Shown here: positions 1 to 10,172 of the stretch, piece after piece | How the letters are laid out: the number at the start of each line of letters is the position of its first letter | Position numbering within the stretch: the stretch's first letter is position 1 | DNA from: Blastocatellia bacterium | GTDB taxonomy: Bacteria > Acidobacteriota > Blastocatellia > RBC074 | Reading direction: 5' to 3' | NCBI GenBank assembly: GCA_046331565.1 | Contig: JAXLQP010000007.1 | Span: forward strand, 97,634-161,633 | Length of the DNA stretch: 64,000 nucleotides | The notes under the pieces: generated by a model | The model's database searches: none | The model's input: only the letters and a program-made list of their open reading frames with translations | What the model was told of the DNA's origin: nothing | Position numbers and translations under genes: made by a program

Positions 1-291
1 CCGGGTGCCCGGAGTTCTGTTCTTCCGGTTCGCCTGCCTTTGTCGCTGACCTGAGGCCCGCACTCGCTGATACCGCCTCGCTTCAGGATCGCAGTCCACC
101 ACACGTTTCTTTCTGACCGGCCTGTGCCGCGAGTGATTGTCCGCTGCGGCCTGGCGCACCCGTAACCATCTTTGCAATCCAGCCTGTTGTCGGGCCGGGT
201 CAACACCAGTTGATGACCTCTGACCGGCAACCGCTCCGCCCGCAGGCGGAAAACTCACAACTCACGACTTGAAGGAAAGGATTCACCATCT

Positions 292-1227
292 ATGAAGAAG
301 CCCGTCATCTTTTCGCTGACGATGACCCTGCTGTGTATGCTGGCCGCTTATCACACTGTCCGCACCCAGAGTCCGGGGTCAGAAGCCGCTCAGATCATCA
401 GGCACCGGATCAATATGGCGCTCGGTTTTGCGCCGACTCCCGGCTCAACCGGCTCGGTGACGCCAAAAATTGTCTACCACAACGGGCCGGTGATCGGCAC
501 GCCGGTGATTTATTACATCTGGTACGGCAACTGGAATCAGACGAACGGCACCGACACGGCTTCAGGACAGCAGATTCTGCGCGACCTGGCCAATACCATT
601 GGCGGTTCGCCGCATTTTCAGATCAACACGACTTACAGCATTACCGGCACCTCGATTACCGGCAATGTCACGTTCGGCGGCGAAACGACTGACAGCTATT
701 CGCAGGGCAGTTCGCTCAGCGATGCCGGCGTGCAGACGGTCGTCAACAACGCGATCAATGCCGGTCGCCTGCCCTACAACGCGAACGGAATCTATTTTGT
801 GCTGAGTTCATCAGACGTGGCCGAATCATCCGGCTTCTGTTCGCAGTATTGCGGCTGGCACACCACCGGCACGCTGACCAGGGGCAAGGTGCGCTGGTCG
901 TTTGTCGGCAATGCGGCCCGCTGCATCAACGCCTGCGCGGCGCAGACCGTCGGGCCGAATGGCAACGCGGGTGTGGACGGCATGGCTTCAGTGCTGGTGC
1001 ATGAACTGGAAGAAGCCACGACTGATCCTGATCTGAACGCCTGGTATGACCGCCGGGGGTCTGAAAATGCCGACAAGTGCGCCTGGACTTTCGGACAGAA
1101 CATGAAAACGACCTCGTCCGGCGCTTATTACAATATGACGCTCGGTTCGCGGAACTTCCTGATTCAGCGCAACCTGAAACACACCTCCACGAGCGACACC
1201 TGCAACGTGAATATGACGCAGCAGTAA
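292..1227 (+). CDS. EXORDIUM/phosphate-induced protein 1 (Phi-1)-like secreted protein, paralog 1
   Basis: N-terminal hydrophobic signal. Motifs YHNGPVI..IYYIWYG, NGIYFVLSSSDV..GFC..YCGWH, VGNA..C..AC and PNGNAGVDGM..HELEEATTDP match the plant Phi-1/EXO family as I recall it. RBS GAAAGGA upstream. Confidence 0.8.
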   Translation: MKKPVIFSLTMTLLCMLAAYHTVRTQSPGSEAAQIIRHRINMALGFAPTPGSTGSVTPKIVYHNGPVIGTPVIYYIWYGNWNQTNGTDTASGQQILRDLANTIGGSPHFQINTTYSITGTSITGNVTFGGETTDSYSQGSSLSDAGVQTVVNNAINAGRLPYNANGIYFVLSSSDVAESSGFCSQYCGWHTTGTLTRGKVRWSFVGNAARCINACAAQTVGPNGNAGVDGMASVLVHELEEATTDPDLNAWYDRRGSENADKCAWTFGQNMKTTSSGAYYNMTLGSRNFLIQRNLKHTSTSDTCNVNMTQQ

Positions 1228-1245
1228 ATCCCGATTTGATGAACA

Positions 1246-1275
1246 GCCCTGACCGGCAGGCGCGTCGGTCAGGGC
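1246..1275 (+). terminator. Stem-loop between the two Phi-1-like genes (possible terminator or stabiliser)
   Basis: GCCCTGACCG (1246-1255) pairs with CGGTCAGGGC (1266-1275), followed by ATTTCGTCTGTT. Confidence 0.5.
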
Positions 1276-1392
1276 ATTTCGTCTGTTGAAATCATCTCGA
1301 CCCAGCCGGCACACAAGACGCTGCCTGACTGCTGCTGAAGCTTACAGGCGAACAAAACGAAACCCGACAACTTACAGAAAGGATTCACCAGT

Positions 1393-2358
1393 ATGAAAAA
1401 GTCTCTGCTCTTTTCGCTGGCTCTGACGCTGCTGTGTACTCTGGTTGTTTACCGCACTGCCCGCACCCAGAGTCCGGGATCAGAAGTCGTTGAGATTATC
1501 CAGCATCGCATCAACATGCGACTTGGCTTTGCGCCGACCGCAGGCGGCACCGGAGTCGTCACGCCGCCGATCAATTACGGCGGCGGCAAACTGATCGGCA
1601 CGCCGGTGATCTATTACATCTGGTATGGCAACTGGAACCAGAACAACGGCGCTGACACGACGGGTGGTCAGCAGATTCTGCGCGACTTTGCGCGCACGAT
1701 TGGCGGCTCGGCGCATTTTCAGATCAACACGACTTACAACGCTGGCGGCTACACAATCACCGGCAATGTCAGTTTTGGCGGCGAGACGACTGACAACTAT
1801 TCGCTCGGCAAACGGCTCAATGATTCCGGCGTGCAGACGGTCGTCAAAAATGCAATCAACAACGGCAAGCTGCCGTATGACGCCAACGGCGTTTACTTTG
1901 TGCTGACCTCGTCGGATGTGGCTGAAAGCTCCGGCTTCTGCCGCATCTATTGCGGCTGGCACACCTCAGCGACGGTGACTCTGAGCGGCACGGGCAAACT
2001 CGTGCGCTATTCCTACGTGGGCAATGCGGCCAAATGCCTGAGCGCCTGCGCCGCACAAACGACGGGGCCAAACGGCAATGCCGGAGTGGACGCGATGGTT
2101 TCGATCATCACGCACGAACTCGAAGAAGCCACGACTGATCCTGATCCGCGTTCCGGCTGGACTGACAGCAGCGGTGCAGAGAACGCCGACAAGTGCGCCT
2201 GGACTTTCGGGCAGAATCAGTTGCAGACCTCAACCGGCGCTTATTACAACGTCACGCTTGGCGTCGGCACCAGCATGCAGCGGAATTACCTGATTCAGCG
2301 CAACCTGAAACACTCATCTTCCGGCGACACCTGCAACGTTGACCTGTCGCATCAGTAA
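1393..2358 (+). CDS. EXORDIUM/Phi-1-like secreted protein, paralog 2
   Basis: Clear paralog of 292-1227, with the same motifs (IYYIWYGNW, HELEEATTDPD, ENADKCAWTFG, LIQRN) and the same GAAAGGATTCACCA leader before ATG. Confidence 0.8.
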   Translation: MKKSLLFSLALTLLCTLVVYRTARTQSPGSEVVEIIQHRINMRLGFAPTAGGTGVVTPPINYGGGKLIGTPVIYYIWYGNWNQNNGADTTGGQQILRDFARTIGGSAHFQINTTYNAGGYTITGNVSFGGETTDNYSLGKRLNDSGVQTVVKNAINNGKLPYDANGVYFVLTSSDVAESSGFCRIYCGWHTSATVTLSGTGKLVRYSYVGNAAKCLSACAAQTTGPNGNAGVDAMVSIITHELEEATTDPDPRSGWTDSSGAENADKCAWTFGQNQLQTSTGAYYNVTLGVGTSMQRNYLIQRNLKHSSSGDTCNVDLSHQ

Positions 2359-2537: not shown

Positions 2538-4748
2538 ATGAACTGTCGCTTCAGCAGACCATCCCTTCATCTCATTCTGTTGCTGGTGTTCGCGGCTTTG
2601 TGCTGTCTGCCGATTGCGGCTGATGACAGAATGATGAAGCTGCCTGTTTTTACCAGAGCCGCTGAAAAATCTGACTGGCTGCTCGGCAAAGTCACGACGC
2701 GGGCGCAGGTCTGGCGCAATCAGCAGGGCACTGAACTCATTCTGAGCAATGGCCTGACAGCCCGCACGATTCGCCTCGCGCCGAATGCCGCGACGGTGGC
2801 TTTTGACAACCTGGTGACTGGTGAATCGCTCGTGCGCGCCGTCGCACCCGAAGCCGTGCTGGAAATCAACGGTAAGAATTATGCCGTCGGCGGGCTGACC
2901 GGACAGCCGAATCTCGCTTACCTGCTGCCCGAATGGGTTGAAGCGATGAAGGCTGATCCGCGCTCATTTCAGTTTGAGCGCTTCGAGATCGGACAACCTG
3001 ACGCGCGCATGCAGTGGCCGCGCGTCCGACACTCAGCACAGACCGCGTGGCCGCCTGCCGGAGTAAAGCTGACGTTGTGGTTTGCGCCGCCGAAGGAACT
3101 GCCTGCCGGTTTGCGCGTCGCGGTGCATTACGAACTTTATGACGGCCTGCCGCTGCTCGGTAAATGGCTCACCGTTCACAACGGCAGTCAGCAATCAGTC
3201 AGGCTCAACACTTTCAGAGTTGAAGTGCTGCGCCTGGTCGAAACGGAATCGCACGTTGAGTTCAGCCCCGAATGGCTCAGGCCGAATCTGACGGTCGTGA
3301 CCGATTACACTTTCGGCGGCATGTCGCAGACCAATTCAAACCGCACGGTTTACCTGGAGGCCGACCCTGATTACAAAACGCAGGTCAATTACGATCTGAA
3401 AACGCCCTGCCTGCTCGAAGTCAGGCCGCCGCTGGGGCCTGACGCTGACATTGCTGCCGGAACCGTGTTTGCGACGTTTCGCGCCTTTGAGCTGATGCAC
3501 GACGACACCGACCGCGAGCGGCACGGGCTGGCCGAAAGAAAAATGTACCGGACGCTGGCGCCCTGGACGACTGAAAATCCGGTGATGATGCACCTCACTT
3601 CGACTGATCCGCAGGTGGTTTATCCCGCGCTCGATCAGGCTGCGGAATGCGGCTTTGAAATGGTCATCATCAGCTTCGGCAGCGGCTTCAAAATGGAAGA
3701 CACTGCTGACGCGAACATCGCAAAGTTTCGCGCCTTTCGTGAATACGCGGCAAAAAAGGGAATCGAACTCGGCGGTTATTCGCTGCTGGCGAGCCGTCAC
3801 ATCAGCGATGAAGACGATGTCATCAATCCGAAAACAGGGCGGCCCGGCGAGGCGATTTATGGCCATTCGCCGTGTCTGGAAAGCGCGTGGGGCCACCAGT
3901 ATTTCGCGCAGCTCAAAAAATTCATCACTGAAACCGGCTTCAATCTGCTCGAACACGACGGCAGCTATCCGGGCGATGTGTGCGCTTCGACAAAGCATCC
4001 TGGTCATCGCGGGCTGAACGATTCGCAATGGAATCAGTATCAGCGCATCGCTGAATTTTATCGGTGGTGCCGCGAGCGCGGAGTTTATCTGAACGTGCCG
4101 GACAGTTATTTTCTGGCCGGGTCGAACAAGACCGGCATGGGTTACCGCGAAACCAACTGGTCGCTGCCCCGCGAGCAGCAGCACGTGCACACGCGCCAGA
4201 ATTTATTTGACGGCACGTGGCAGAAAACTCCGTCAATGGGCTGGATGTTTGTCCCGCTGGTGCAATATCAGGGCGGCGGCGCGGCAGCGACGATTGAACC
4301 GCTGCGCGAACATCTGACCGATTACGAAATGCACCTCGCCAATAATTTCGGTTATGGCGCGCAGGCGTGCTGGCGCGGCCCGCGACTTTACGACAGCCCC
4401 GAAACAAAGGCGGTGGTCAGCAAATGGGTGCAGTGGTTCAAAAAGCACCGTGACATTCTGGAATCGGATGTGATTCATGTCCGTCGCGCCGATGGCCGCA
4501 ACCTGGACTGCATTCTGCACGTCAATCCGGCGCTGCCGGTCAAAGGCCTGGCGATGGTTTACAATCCGACCGACCGCGAACTGGAACAGGAAATCACGCT
4601 GCCGCTTTATTACACCGGCCTTGATCGTGAGGCTCAGGTGGCCGAACAGGACAGGCCGGCGGCGAGGATGAAGCTGGATCGTGAATATCGCATCACGATT
4701 CGTCCGAAGGTTGCCGCCAGGTCGCAGACGTGGTTTGTCATTCGCTGA
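2538..4748 (+). CDS. Secreted glycoside hydrolase, alpha-galactosidase-like (clan GH-D-like TIM barrel)
   Basis: 736 aa with signal peptide, an N-terminal beta-rich domain, a LLEHDGSYPGD segment resembling the GH27/36 nucleophile region and a C-terminal beta domain. Family assignment is from recall only. Confidence 0.55.
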   Translation: MNCRFSRPSLHLILLLVFAALCCLPIAADDRMMKLPVFTRAAEKSDWLLGKVTTRAQVWRNQQGTELILSNGLTARTIRLAPNAATVAFDNLVTGESLVRAVAPEAVLEINGKNYAVGGLTGQPNLAYLLPEWVEAMKADPRSFQFERFEIGQPDARMQWPRVRHSAQTAWPPAGVKLTLWFAPPKELPAGLRVAVHYELYDGLPLLGKWLTVHNGSQQSVRLNTFRVEVLRLVETESHVEFSPEWLRPNLTVVTDYTFGGMSQTNSNRTVYLEADPDYKTQVNYDLKTPCLLEVRPPLGPDADIAAGTVFATFRAFELMHDDTDRERHGLAERKMYRTLAPWTTENPVMMHLTSTDPQVVYPALDQAAECGFEMVIISFGSGFKMEDTADANIAKFRAFREYAAKKGIELGGYSLLASRHISDEDDVINPKTGRPGEAIYGHSPCLESAWGHQYFAQLKKFITETGFNLLEHDGSYPGDVCASTKHPGHRGLNDSQWNQYQRIAEFYRWCRERGVYLNVPDSYFLAGSNKTGMGYRETNWSLPREQQHVHTRQNLFDGTWQKTPSMGWMFVPLVQYQGGGAAATIEPLREHLTDYEMHLANNFGYGAQACWRGPRLYDSPETKAVVSKWVQWFKKHRDILESDVIHVRRADGRNLDCILHVNPALPVKGLAMVYNPTDRELEQEITLPLYYTGLDREAQVAEQDRPAARMKLDREYRITIRPKVAARSQTWFVIR

Positions 4749-6338: not shown

Positions 6339-6451
6339 GTTGCGCGATTTGCCAGAATCGCGCCGCATCCGCTATCAGTTCGTTACGTAAGCCGCGCGAT
6401 ACTGGCAAATCGCGCAACACTTTTTGAAGCGATTCTGGCAAATCGCGCAAC
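6339..6451. repeat. REP-like palindromic element, three copies of GCGAT[T/A]CTGGCAAATCGCGCAAC
   Basis: One inverted copy at 6339-6361 and direct copies at 6396-6418 and 6429-6451. The same element occurs at 17411-17491. Confidence 0.85.
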
Positions 6452-6474
6452 ATTTTTTGAAAGAGAATTACCAC

Positions 6475-8802
6475 TTGAATCAGGCTGTCATTATTCGTTG
6501 TTTTAGCTGTCTTGCCCTGCTGATCGTCTGCCTGGTTGCGCCGCTTCGTGCGCGGGCAGAGGACGGAAAAGGCAGCGATCCGGTTGACCCGAAGCCAAGT
6601 CTGGCGCTGCCGAAGGTTGAGCGCGCGCCGACGCTCGAAGACTTTCTGGAGATGAAACCGGGCGGCGAATTTGAAGGCCGCCTGTCAAAGGCTGAAGGAT
6701 TTATTCAGCAGCGCCCGAAGGACGGCGAACCGGCTTCGCAGCGCACTGAGGCTTATTTCTGTTACGACGACAAAAACCTTTACGTCATATGGCTGTGCTT
6801 CGACACCGAACCCGAAAAGATCAGGGCGCGGATGGAACGGCGCGAGAATGCCTTTGATGATGACTGGGTTGAAATCACACTTGATACTTTTCGTGATCAG
6901 CGGCGCGGTTACGTGTTCTGGTCGAATCCGCTTGGCGTGCAGGCCGAAGCGATCTGGTCTGAAGATGCACAGGGCGGGCGGCAGCAGGGGCCGGACTTTT
7001 CCTTTGATACGGTCTGGTATTCGCGGGGTAAAGTGACCGACAAGGGCTATGTGGTCTGGATGCAGATTCCATTCAAGAGCCTGCGCTTTTCGAGCGCCTC
7101 GCCGCAATCGTGGGGAATGACGCTGCTGCGCGTGATTCCGCACGCAAGCAATGAATGGTCATACTGGCCGCGCGTGTCGAGTCGCGTGCAGGGGCGGCTG
7201 ACGCAGGCCGCCACTGTGACCGATCTCAATAACATTTCGCCGGGCCGCAATATTCAACTCATTCCTTACGGTTCGTTTCGTTCATTTCGCGCACTGGATG
7301 AACGCGACGCTGCCCGCCCGCGCTTTGTCAGCGACCGCGAATTTGATGGCGGCGTGGATGCCAAAATTGCATTGAAGGAAAACCTGGTGCTGGATGTCAC
7401 GGTCAATCCTGATTTCGCGCAGGTCGAATCGGATGAACCGCAGGTGACAGTCAATCAGCGGTTTGAAGTTTTCTTTCCTGAAAAGCGCCCGTTCTTTCTG
7501 GAAAATTCCGATTTCTTTCGCACGCCGATCAATCTGGTCTTTACGCGGCGCATTGCCGACCCGCAGTTCGGGGCGCGACTGACGGGCAAACTCGGTCGTT
7601 ATTCGCTTGGCGTGATGGCGATTGATGATCAGTCGCCGGGGCGCAGCGTGCTGCCGGGCGATGCGCTGTTCGGCAAACGCGCCATGTTCGGCATCGTGCG
7701 CGTCAACCGCGACATTCTGAAACAATCGTCAATCGGATTTATTTACACCGACCGCGAACTGGCGGGCAGTCATAATCGCGTCGGCGGCATTGACGGGCGC
7801 TTCCGGCTCAATTCCAACTGGGTGGCGCGCTTTCAGGCCGTGACGAGCGTGACAACGGAAGCTGATGGCAGCCGCCTCGCAGGCCCGGCCTATGATTTCA
7901 GCCTTGAACGCAGCGGGCGCAAGTTTCAGTACAACTTTCAATACAACGACCGCAGCCCCGGCTTTCGCGCGCTGACCGGATTCATTCCGCGCACCGATAT
8001 TCGTCACCTTCAGTCCACGATCAATTATCGCTTCCGGCCCGAAGGCCGGATTCTGACTTCGTGGGGGCCAAGGTTTAATCAGGAAGTGAACTTCGATCAC
8101 AGCGGTACGCGGCTGGACTGGTTTGTGACGCACGCGCTCAATTTTGAATTTACCGGACGCACGCAGGTCAGCGTCTTTCAGGGCGACAACCGTGAGCGAT
8201 TGCGCCCGCAGGATTTTTCAGGGCTGACGCGCAGCCTGGATTTTTCAAGTCCCTTCAGAGGCCTGGTGCTGAGTTCGTCCTATCTGCCGCAGGCGACGGT
8301 GCAGGCCGAATTATTTATTTATCCGGGCATCAACTTTGCGCCGCCCGCAGGCCGCGAACCGTTTCTGACCAATCGCTCGAATCTGAATCTGACGCTGACG
8401 CTGCGCCCGCTCAGGCCGCTGCGCGTGGACAATACTTACATTCTGTCGCGGGCTGTTGATCGTCCGACCGGAGCGAATATTTTCAATAACCATATCATCC
8501 GCTCGAAATTCAACTGGCAGTTCAGCCGTGAACTCTCGTTGCGCACCATCGTGCAATACAGCGCCGTGCTGGCCAATCCGTCGCTGACTTCCTTACAGAC
8601 GACGAAAAACTTCAATGCTGATTTTCTGGTGGCGTGGCAGCTCAATCCGGGCACGGCGCTCTATGTTGGTTACAACAGCAACCTGCAAAATCTCGATCTG
8701 ATTCAGACGCCGCTCGGCGCTGACATTACGCGTTACCCGAATCGCTTCATCAATGACGGAAAGCAGTTATTCATCAAACTGTCGTGGCTGTTCAGGCTGT
8801 AG
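6475..8802 (+). CDS. Outer-membrane protein with CBM9-like N-domain and DUF5916 beta-barrel
   Basis: Signal peptide, LDVTVNPDFAQVESD...FFPEKRPFFLEN motif and C-terminal FIKLSWLFRL beta signal. The ORF-track start (6424) lies inside a repeat, so TTG at 6475 is preferred. Confidence 0.75.
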   Translation: MNQAVIIRCFSCLALLIVCLVAPLRARAEDGKGSDPVDPKPSLALPKVERAPTLEDFLEMKPGGEFEGRLSKAEGFIQQRPKDGEPASQRTEAYFCYDDKNLYVIWLCFDTEPEKIRARMERRENAFDDDWVEITLDTFRDQRRGYVFWSNPLGVQAEAIWSEDAQGGRQQGPDFSFDTVWYSRGKVTDKGYVVWMQIPFKSLRFSSASPQSWGMTLLRVIPHASNEWSYWPRVSSRVQGRLTQAATVTDLNNISPGRNIQLIPYGSFRSFRALDERDAARPRFVSDREFDGGVDAKIALKENLVLDVTVNPDFAQVESDEPQVTVNQRFEVFFPEKRPFFLENSDFFRTPINLVFTRRIADPQFGARLTGKLGRYSLGVMAIDDQSPGRSVLPGDALFGKRAMFGIVRVNRDILKQSSIGFIYTDRELAGSHNRVGGIDGRFRLNSNWVARFQAVTSVTTEADGSRLAGPAYDFSLERSGRKFQYNFQYNDRSPGFRALTGFIPRTDIRHLQSTINYRFRPEGRILTSWGPRFNQEVNFDHSGTRLDWFVTHALNFEFTGRTQVSVFQGDNRERLRPQDFSGLTRSLDFSSPFRGLVLSSSYLPQATVQAELFIYPGINFAPPAGREPFLTNRSNLNLTLTLRPLRPLRVDNTYILSRAVDRPTGANIFNNHIIRSKFNWQFSRELSLRTIVQYSAVLANPSLTSLQTTKNFNADFLVAWQLNPGTALYVGYNSNLQNLDLIQTPLGADITRYPNRFINDGKQLFIKLSWLFRL

Positions 8803-8999: not shown

Positions 9000-10172
9000 A
9001 TGAAATCGCAATTGCGTGTGGCCCTGTGTTTACTGGTTGTTTTGCTGATGACGGTGAGTGTGGCGGCACAGACACTCAATGTCGAACGGCTGGCGGCGGA
9101 ACTGGAACCTGAAATCAGGCGGACGATGCAGGAAGGCAACATTCCGTCCTGCACGGTGGCGCTGGTGGCGGGTGATCGCATCATCTGGACGGGAGCTTAT
9201 GGTTACTCGAACGTGCGCGCCCAGGTTCCGGCAAAGACTGACACGGTCTATCTGATCGGCTCGACTTTCAAGGCCATGTCAACCGTCGCGCTGCTGCAAC
9301 TGATGGAGCAGGGCCGCTTCAAGCTTGATGATCCGGTCAGCCGCTATCTGACCGACTTCAAAATTCAGGGCGAAGACCCGCAGCAGCCTGTCACCTTTCG
9401 CCACCTGCTGACGCACACTTCGGGAATGCCTGCTGACTTCGGGCCGTTTCCGTTGTGGGGCGACCAGGCGCCGCCGAAGCTTGAGGATTATCTGAGCAGT
9501 TCGCTCAGAGTCACCGATGCGCCGCTCAAAAAGGTCGTCTATTCAAATATGGCCTATTCGCTCATCGGCTATCTGGTGCAGAAACTTTCCGGCGTGCCGT
9601 ACCGGCAGTACGTGCAGGAACATCTGTTCACGCCGCTGGAAATGAACAGCACTGTCTTTGCGATCACGCCTGAGATGGAAGAGCGGTTGTCAATTCCTTA
9701 TGTCTTTGACGCGGCGACAAAGAAACAGGTGCCGACGCAGCGGCTGCGCGCGGCAGTGTGGCCGGCGGGTCTGGTTTACGGCACTGTGACCGATCAGGCC
9801 AACTGGCTGATTGCGAATCTCAACAGCGGCACTTTCAAGGGACGGCAACTGCTCAGCGCCGAAACGCACAATCAGATGCTGACGAAGCAGTACCCGCAAT
9901 TCAAAGGGCCAATCGAAGAGTTGTGGGGTGGCGAACAGGCGGGCTTCGGGCTGACGTGGTGGGTTGAGGACAGAAACGGCGAACGGTTTTTCGCGCACAG
10001 CGGCAGCGTGCCTGGTTACACGGCCTTTCTGCTCGGCAATCGTGACCAGAAACTCGGCTTTGCCATTCTGACCAATGGCAACCGCGCGCACAAACACCTG
10101 ATTAAACTGGCCGACAAAGCGGTTGAGCTGCTCAGAGCGCATAAACAAAAGGCCGCCGCTTCAGGCCGGTGA
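9000..10172 (+). CDS. Serine hydrolase, beta-lactamase class C/AmpC-like family, secreted
   Basis: Signal peptide, SxxK (IGSTFK), LLTHTSG, YSN and HSG motifs. Confidence 0.9.

Follow-up and report, generated by a model that had tools for sequence, protein, structure and literature searches.

Plant EXO and EXL proteins act in cell expansion and in brassinosteroid responses, and the family to which they belong is catalogued as PF04674 (Phi_1, "phosphate-induced protein 1 conserved region"; InterPro IPR006766). We analysed a tandem pair of bacterial genes of this family, open reading frames (ORFs) A and B, in a 64-kb window of DNA from a soil-type acidobacterium of the class Blastocatellia (the whole stretch of 64,000 nucleotides studied here, positions 97,634 to 161,633 of contig JAXLQP010000007.1; coordinates below are those of the window unless another locus is named). 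Bacterial EXORDIUM members are not new, a homologue in Solibacter usitatus having already been reported by Schroder et al. in 2009 (PMC2661892), and ORF A and ORF B themselves are unremarkable members of a family that already has an annotation. For the plant EXO proteins, the biochemical function was still called "unknown", over 20 years on, in a 2026 paper (PMC13103426). Our literature searches found no experimental study of any bacterial member and no paper tying EXORDIUM to a fold, a metal or an enzyme, and the hypothesis considered here, that bacterial members are metal-dependent hydrolases, is apparently unpublished. The two genes are located as follows:

292 to 1227, plus strand: ORF A, 311 amino acids, PF04674 (Phi_1/EXORDIUM), HExxE type
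1393 to 2358, plus strand: ORF B, 321 amino acids, PF04674, paralogue of ORF A (70% identity)

Both ORFs proved to be members of PF04674, as an initial annotation made from the letters of this DNA had proposed. In a hidden Markov model search of Pfam, ORF A scored 91.7 bits and ORF B 85.6 bits against a cut-off of 25, with positions 2-251 and 3-239 of the 276-position profile covered, and searches of NCBIfam, PHROGs and PDB sequences returned no match. The 70% identity between ORF A and ORF B extended over their full length (BLASTP E 2e-162), and a genome search found no PF04674 genes other than these two in the 8.18-Mb, 12-contig assembly. At 90% clustering, ORF A matched at least 6,467 proteins, with soil metagenomes being rich in the family, and 4,353 clusters at 50% identity matched at E ≤ 1e-3. 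Among the named matches of ORF A, most belonged to Acidobacteriota and one to Anaeromyxobacteraceae; the NCBI name "EXORDIUM family protein" is attached to one of them. Close homologues were 54-98% identical and derived mostly from metagenome-assembled genomes of Blastocatellia or other Acidobacteriota, and occurrence across the phylum was patchy (5 of 201 species genomes).

The initial annotation had also noticed the pentapeptide HELEE in both proteins and had likened its HExxE pattern to the metal site of zinc peptidases. HELEE occupies residues 237-241 of ORF A (nucleotides 1000-1014) and residues 241-245 of ORF B (nucleotides 2113-2127), within a longer segment encoded at the following positions:

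1000 to 1032, plus strand: HELEEATTDPD codons of ORF A (residues 237-247), putative metal and catalytic motif closing helix 226-244 at its C-terminus
2113 to 2145, plus strand: HELEEATTDPD codons of ORF B (residues 241-251), with the model helix ending at the Thr of motif position 8

Our conservation tally took in 120 plant and 270 other sequences, and the 150 representatives of 50%-identity clusters used for the bacterial type were almost all apparently bacterial, three of them being Closterium proteins. In an alignment of 36 close homologues, H237, E238, L239, E240, E241 and D245 (ORF A numbering, used hereafter) were invariant. The same pattern held among the 150 cluster representatives, where H237 was kept in 143, E238 in 146, E241 in 142 and D245 in 145, giving a motif consensus of HE[LI]xExx[TS]DP, and D247 was kept in just 67. 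These counts confirmed that HELEE is present in both copies and that HExxE is strongly conserved in bacterial-type members. The motif H, E or E was lost in P0212, P0177, P0250, P0254, P0258 and P0265 (for example as ALLDK, KELLS or RELNK), with the domain otherwise kept; such motif-less bacterial-type clusters may represent pseudo-variants with an origin separate from that of the plant forms.

We then compared the bacterial type with land-plant members, which were fetched by means of an Arabidopsis EXL-type query (98% identical to a database Arabidopsis protein), with the retrieved proteins alone being analysed; this plant sample is biased towards angiosperms (EXO, EXL1 or PHI-1-like). Alignment of the bacterial and plant Phi_1 profiles by hhalign gave 100% (E 3e-42), and on this profile evidence the homology of the two types is certain. 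H237, E238, E241 and D245 were nevertheless kept in none of the 120 land-plant sequences, which instead carry S/G-L-x-x-G/A-T-x-T-N-P-F, so that the His and Glu residues are not conserved family-wide. D253, D261, K262, W265 and Q292 were also specific to the bacterial type and not found in plants. Residues invariant in an alignment with eight plant proteins were C187, G188, H190, C215, P222, N223, D229, E258, C263 and C304, and the branch leading to land plants was very long, at about 2.6 changes per site.

Among the 150 "bacterial" representatives, P0136, P0145 and P0163 scored highest with the plant profile and were identified as coming from Closterium spp., algae of the Zygnematophyceae, the class that is nearest to land plants. 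A search with one Closterium domain revealed an expansion of Phi_1 in this genus, comprising about 47 clusters from eight strains (P0391-P0439), and 44 of the 47 homologues carried HE[ILV]xEAA[TS][DN]P, indicating that the motif-bearing type is not confined to bacteria. Closterium proteins scored a median of 227 bits with the bacterial profile versus 82 bits with the plant profile, and the bacterial profile was far better in all of them. Some of the Closterium Phi_1 proteins are tandem multi-domain gene models. A tree with bacteria, Closterium and plants, affected by long branches and poor gene models, was compatible with either inheritance or acquisition of the Closterium genes. From these comparisons the motif-less land-plant type looks derived, and the family falls into two types, one in bacteria and Closterium with a near-invariant H-E-x-x-E...D and one in land plants without these residues. 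Since plants are without HExxE, any metal-dependent activity of the bacterial proteins would not carry over to plant EXO/PHI-1.

The N-termini of both proteins carry predicted export signals, as the initial annotation had noted:

292 to 369, plus strand: predicted Sec signal peptide of ORF A, residues 1-26, consisting of MKK, a hydrophobic core and VRT/QS (the slash marks the inferred cleavage site)
1393 to 1470, plus strand: predicted Sec signal peptide of ORF B, residues 1-26, with ART/QS at the inferred cleavage site

In each case a hydrophobic stretch of 12 residues, with a mean Kyte-Doolittle hydropathy of 2.25 in ORF A and 2.46 in ORF B, comes after MKK, and homologues mostly have AxA/Q at the putative cleavage position; the prediction is based on a hydropathy heuristic together with the homologue alignment. 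In the AlphaFold2 (AF2) model of ORF A, the N-terminus formed a lone helix, with a linker of low confidence after it. Each mature protein contains exactly six Cys (183, 187, 211, 215, 263 and 304 in ORF A), all of them invariant in close homologues and conserved in plants. Cys183 and Cys211 were jointly lost in 22 of the 150 cluster representatives versus 1-2 single losses, with the other four Cys being near-invariant. This correlated loss supports a C183-C211 disulfide and agrees with the earlier suggestion that the conserved Cys form disulfides, while the pairs C187-C215 and C263-C304, assigned by elimination, are less certain.

The predicted fold was examined in two AF2 models, one of ORF A built from 36 sequences (predicted local distance difference test, pLDDT, 84; predicted template modelling score, pTM, 0.82) and one of ORF B residues 40-321 built from 65 sequences including plants (pLDDT 93.4, pTM 0.92). 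Both models showed strand b1, helix aA (split in two), b2, aB, b3, a b4-b5 hairpin, a short helix carrying two Cys and a long helix, in that order, and in both HELEE formed the last turns of the long helix, which ended at the Thr of motif position 8 and was followed by Asp-Pro-Asp. Metzincins have the layout HExxHxxGxxH, with a helix-ending Gly at position 8, and Asp-zincins such as snapalysin have HExxHxxGxxD; the end of the motif helix at Thr 8 matches this helix-ending Gly. A Foldseek search of the PDB with the ORF B model returned adamalysin, snake-venom, ADAM, ADAMTS and fragilysin catalytic domains in about 44 of the top 50 matches, with a probability of up to 0.92, a template modelling score (TM) by target of about 0.40 and about 180 aligned columns. 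The ORF A model gave a similar list, and the top two matches among viral models were a mimivirus metalloprotease and a Tupanvirus ulilysin.

Domain architecture provided a hint about the substrate side. About 40% of the best 150 cluster representatives were longer than 420 amino acids, and the partner domains found in 48 long relatives were TIG, FG-GAP, CBM_4_9, Ricin-B, malectin, Laminin_G_3, FN3 and Big, with no second recognised catalytic domain beside Phi_1 in these 48 proteins; CHB_HEX_C modules were also joined to Phi_1 among the long representatives. Glycan-binding and Ig-like fusion partners without a second catalytic domain point to an extracellular glycan-bearing polymer.

The reading that we favour, with a probability of roughly 0.45, is that ORF A and ORF B encode secreted, disulfide-stabilised metal-dependent hydrolases, of which the land-plant EXO proteins are derived forms without the site. 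After export, the mature domain of about 285 residues would fold as an alpha/beta domain whose element order parallels that of adamalysin/ADAM. A divalent metal would be bound by His237 and Glu241, which sit one turn of the helix from each other, and by Asp245 or Asp247 past the helix-ending Thr-Asp-Pro turn; Glu238, as general base, would activate water in the manner of zincins. The product would be an extracellular metal-dependent hydrolase, for which a peptidase is the first guess and an extracellular glycan-bearing polymer the candidate substrate, and the land-plant EXO proteins would be its non-catalytic descendants. More tentative is a wider version of this proposal, in which Phi_1/EXORDIUM is a very large unrecognised family, present in bacteria and streptophyte algae, whose members are zincin-like metallohydrolases that are secreted and have an adamalysin-type fold and an unusual set of His-Glu-Asp ligands (HExxExx[T/S]DP), and the land-plant EXO/EXL/PHI-1 proteins are pseudoenzymes whose site was lost on the embryophyte branch after the Closterium split.

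A number of observations weigh against metal-dependent hydrolysis. None of the PDB matches in Foldseek reached E < 1e-3 (the best adamalysin/ADAM values were 3.5e-3 to 4.7e-3, with TM of 0.3-0.4), and gephyrin E and MoaB, which have a different alpha/beta fold, scored alike. With Peptidase_M43 and Reprolysin_4 profiles built from acidobacterial genes, hhalign gave the bacterial Phi_1 profile 1.1% against Peptidase_M43 and 0.9% against Reprolysin_4, versus 94.8% for the control comparison of these two peptidase profiles with each other; the HE of HELEE fell on the HE of HExxH only in a forced long hhalign alignment, which we did not count as evidence. There was likewise no sub-threshold Pfam peptidase match among 21 diverse members, and no match among PDB sequences. 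The motif itself departs from HExxH, its second His being Glu in 142 of the 150 representatives, and the canonical second and third His ligands are missing; metzincins have as third ligand a His or Asp at position 11 past a Gly turn, and gluzincins a Glu further downstream, whereas here the helix stops at position 8 and the candidate residues are D245 (position 9), present in 145 of the 150 representatives, and D247 (position 11), present in 67. Models and alignments contained no conserved Met-turn and no C-terminal helix, the chain being beta-rich after residue 247. No true HExxE zincin family was found in the literature: the "HEXXE" of an M35 paper is the HExxH site of the M35 family. In a CLCA1 preprint that uses "HEXXE", the site is described with His156 and His160. 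H190, N223, D229 and E258, which are common to both kingdoms, could mark the real functional site, and no conserved neighbour or operon partner was shared by three homologues on long contigs, so that the surroundings gave no hint of a substrate. For the secreted metallo-hydrolase inferred in the initial annotation, and for the zincin-like site that it proposed to look for, the outcome was mixed: a zincin-like fold is favoured by the mostly adamalysin/ADAM composition of the Foldseek list and disfavoured by its E values above 1e-3, its TM of 0.3-0.4 and the hhalign result of about 1%, and secreted metallo-hydrolase activity is favoured by motif conservation and the fold list and disfavoured by the profile comparison and by the lack of a Met-turn and of a third His.

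The residues shared with plants are central to another explanation, which we consider somewhat unlikely, namely that these are secreted non-catalytic binding or structural proteins, directed at a cell-envelope or environmental glycan or at a small ligand. Function would then lie on the plant-shared surface (H190, N223, D229, E258 and the disulfides), and HExxE..D..D would hold a structural cation, e.g. Ca2+. Plant members do work without HExxE, their biochemical function being the one called unknown in 2026 (PMC13103426); H190, N223, D229, E258 and five of the six Cys are present in no fewer than 146 of the 150 cluster representatives and 119 of the 120 land-plant sequences, and C304 is kept in 136 of 150, the remainder being gaps. 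Such a role would also accommodate the lack of significant enzyme-family similarity in sequence or profile searches and the persistence of motif-less bacterial-type clusters (P0212, P0177 and P0250). It accounts less well for the presence of H-E-x-x-E, including the non-ligand Glu238, in about 95% of very diverse clusters, which exceeds the usual need of a structural cation, or for Phi_1 being the sole non-binding domain beside lectin and CBM modules, a layout usual for enzymes and not for lectins; moreover, the length of the land-plant branch, about 2.6 changes per site, suggests that function shifted there and is not a common one. The proteins could instead be enzymes of a non-zincin kind (glycan-active, esterase/deacetylase, phosphatase or transglutaminase-like) with other site residues, in which case the likeness to adamalysin would be that of a generic alpha/beta fold; we regard this as unlikely. 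The equally weak Foldseek scores of gephyrin E and MoaB fit it, as do the mostly carbohydrate-binding partner domains and a faint, repeated match of ENADKCAWTFG...NG to microbial transglutaminase. In ORF A this match spans 39 residues (250-288, about nucleotides 1039-1155; AWYD..ENADKCAWTFG...NGA), with E 0.49 to PDB 1iu4 in a profile search and E 0.014 to Pfam Transglut_prok in 1 of 21 members. Multiple testing, however, leaves it without significance, and Phe267 is the residue opposite the catalytic His274 in the alignment; microbial transglutaminase (PF09017) was accordingly rejected as the identity of the family, the match being local and insignificant and the catalytic His not conserved. 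In addition, disulfide formation is the best explanation for the six Cys, none of the searches brought up a CAZy-like, phosphatase or esterase family, and the name "phosphate-induced" refers to the expression of the tobacco gene only.

It would be very improbable that one or both genes are decaying duplicates without function, an idea to which the tandem arrangement lends itself, given that the closest relative is single-copy. That relative, P0002, the closest named one, is 74% identical and comes from a "Blastocatellia bacterium" metagenome-assembled genome. Both reading frames are intact with all family-invariant residues kept, and the ratio of nonsynonymous to synonymous substitution rates (dN/dS) was 0.28 between ORF A and ORF B and 0.14-0.18 against the P0002 orthologue, indicating that both copies are maintained under purifying selection. 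Decay is further at odds with the presence of a conserved leader at each gene, with the separate terminator of ORF A and with the age of the duplication. The leader copies are:

275 to 288, plus strand: 14-nt leader GAAAGGATTCACCA, with a Shine-Dalgarno-like AAGGA inside, 3 nt upstream of the ORF A ATG
1377 to 1390, plus strand: second copy of the 14-nt leader, GAAAGGATTCACCA, 2 nt upstream of the ORF B ATG

The 64-kb window held two exact matches of the 14-mer versus 0.02 expected by chance; upstream of it, the similarity between the ORF A and ORF B loci fades. The maximum-likelihood tree had the form (B,(P0002,(A,P0001))), with support of 100/99 and 100/94, ORF A grouping with the single-copy orthologue and not with ORF B (support 100/94). 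The identical 14-mer was also present upstream of the P0002 orthologue gene (L007, L008). The tree topology together with the 14-mer at the orthologue indicates an old duplication and a conserved leader: the duplication took place at about the time when these genomes split, or earlier, and the 14-mer is a leader conserved at translation starts and more than the scar of a recent duplication. The initial annotation was thus right that both genes share the leader, but the repeat is more than the sign of local duplication that it was taken for, since the same 14-mer occurs in another genome and ORF A pairs with the orthologue.

Downstream of each gene, we identified a hairpin:

1246 to 1285 (hairpin 1246-1275), plus strand: intrinsic-terminator-like hairpin with a 12-bp stem, 9 GC pairs and a T-rich tail, 3' of ORF A
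2397 to 2436 (hairpin about 2397-2427), plus strand: GC-rich hairpin GCCGCTGCCCGG / CCGGCAGCGGC, then TTTGTGCTG, 3' of ORF B, read from the sequence

The hairpin of ORF B is a possible terminator, being weaker than that of ORF A and absent from the list of the consensus scan. ORF A and ORF B are monocistronic, tandemly duplicated genes. Reading of the upstream DNA, with no dedicated search run, revealed no Pho-box-like or other regulatory repeat that stood out, and a link to phosphate is therefore unsupported beyond the family name.

Directly 3' of ORF B lies a 736-amino-acid ORF (2538-4748, plus strand) with a signal-peptide-like N-terminus and no match in Pfam, NCBIfam, PHROGs or PDB sequences. 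It was dropped as a functional partner, as the closest relative has no such ORF at its syntenic locus (L007). The P0002 gene is followed on its 3' side by RidA-like and adenosine-deaminase genes, and the order in the window is the same if the extra 736-amino-acid ORF is ignored. The window further contains a gene for a 792-amino-acid protein with DUF5916 and a CBM9-like domain (6424-8802, plus strand), followed by a serine beta-lactamase-family gene (9000-10172). Just upstream of the window (L003, 7584-11358), two squalene/phytoene-synthase-family genes together with a flavin amine-oxidase-family gene make up a squalene set of the HpnC/HpnD/HpnE kind, with a Uma2-family endonuclease gene between the two synthase-family genes, and the relative (L007) has a squalene-hopene cyclase on the opposite side of the Phi_1 gene. 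On the same locus, three successive genes for HlyD-family membrane-fusion proteins occupy L003 1010-5179 on the minus strand.

If the bacterial proteins are metal-dependent hydrolases, plant EXO would be a pseudoenzyme recruited for cell-wall signalling, and the ancestral substrate would hint at the binding target of plant EXO. The initial annotation had regarded the bacterial members as a tractable route to the function of the family; this prospect remains for the ancestral function but not for plant function directly, since the plants are without HExxE, and the absent motif limits the hope of reading plant function from bacterial proteins.

Compared with described systems, ORF A and ORF B are of the same family and type as the Solibacter usitatus homologue and the NCBI "EXORDIUM family protein" entries, and they differ from the nearest syntenic relative in being tandemly duplicated instead of single-copy. 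With plant EXO/EXL/PHI-1 they have in common a length of about 300 amino acids, the six-Cys framework and, as predicted for ORF A and ORF B, a signal peptide and an extracellular location, and with plant EXO the motifs GFCxxxCGxH, VGNxxxC, PNxxxGxDGM and E..(x)C, but their identity to plant EXO is only 23-27% and the plant proteins carry a WPFHxPxYGPQ insertion. The Closterium proteins are about 40% identical to bacterial members, although eukaryotic, and have signal-peptide-like N-termini, with plant-like WW..YY and KYLLPAL segments in some of them. Unlike metzincins, ORF A and ORF B have Glu and not His at position 5, Thr/Ser and not Gly at position 8, and no third His, and we treat the likeness to adamalysin as a working analogy and not as shown membership. 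Within this analogy, the ORF A and ORF B models follow the same element order as adamalysin/ADAM (MEROPS M12B) up to the long helix, the proteins resemble metzincins in H-E at positions 1-2, a metal-capable residue at position 5 and Asp at position 11, and they are, like adamalysins, disulfide-rich and secreted, as predicted from their export signals.

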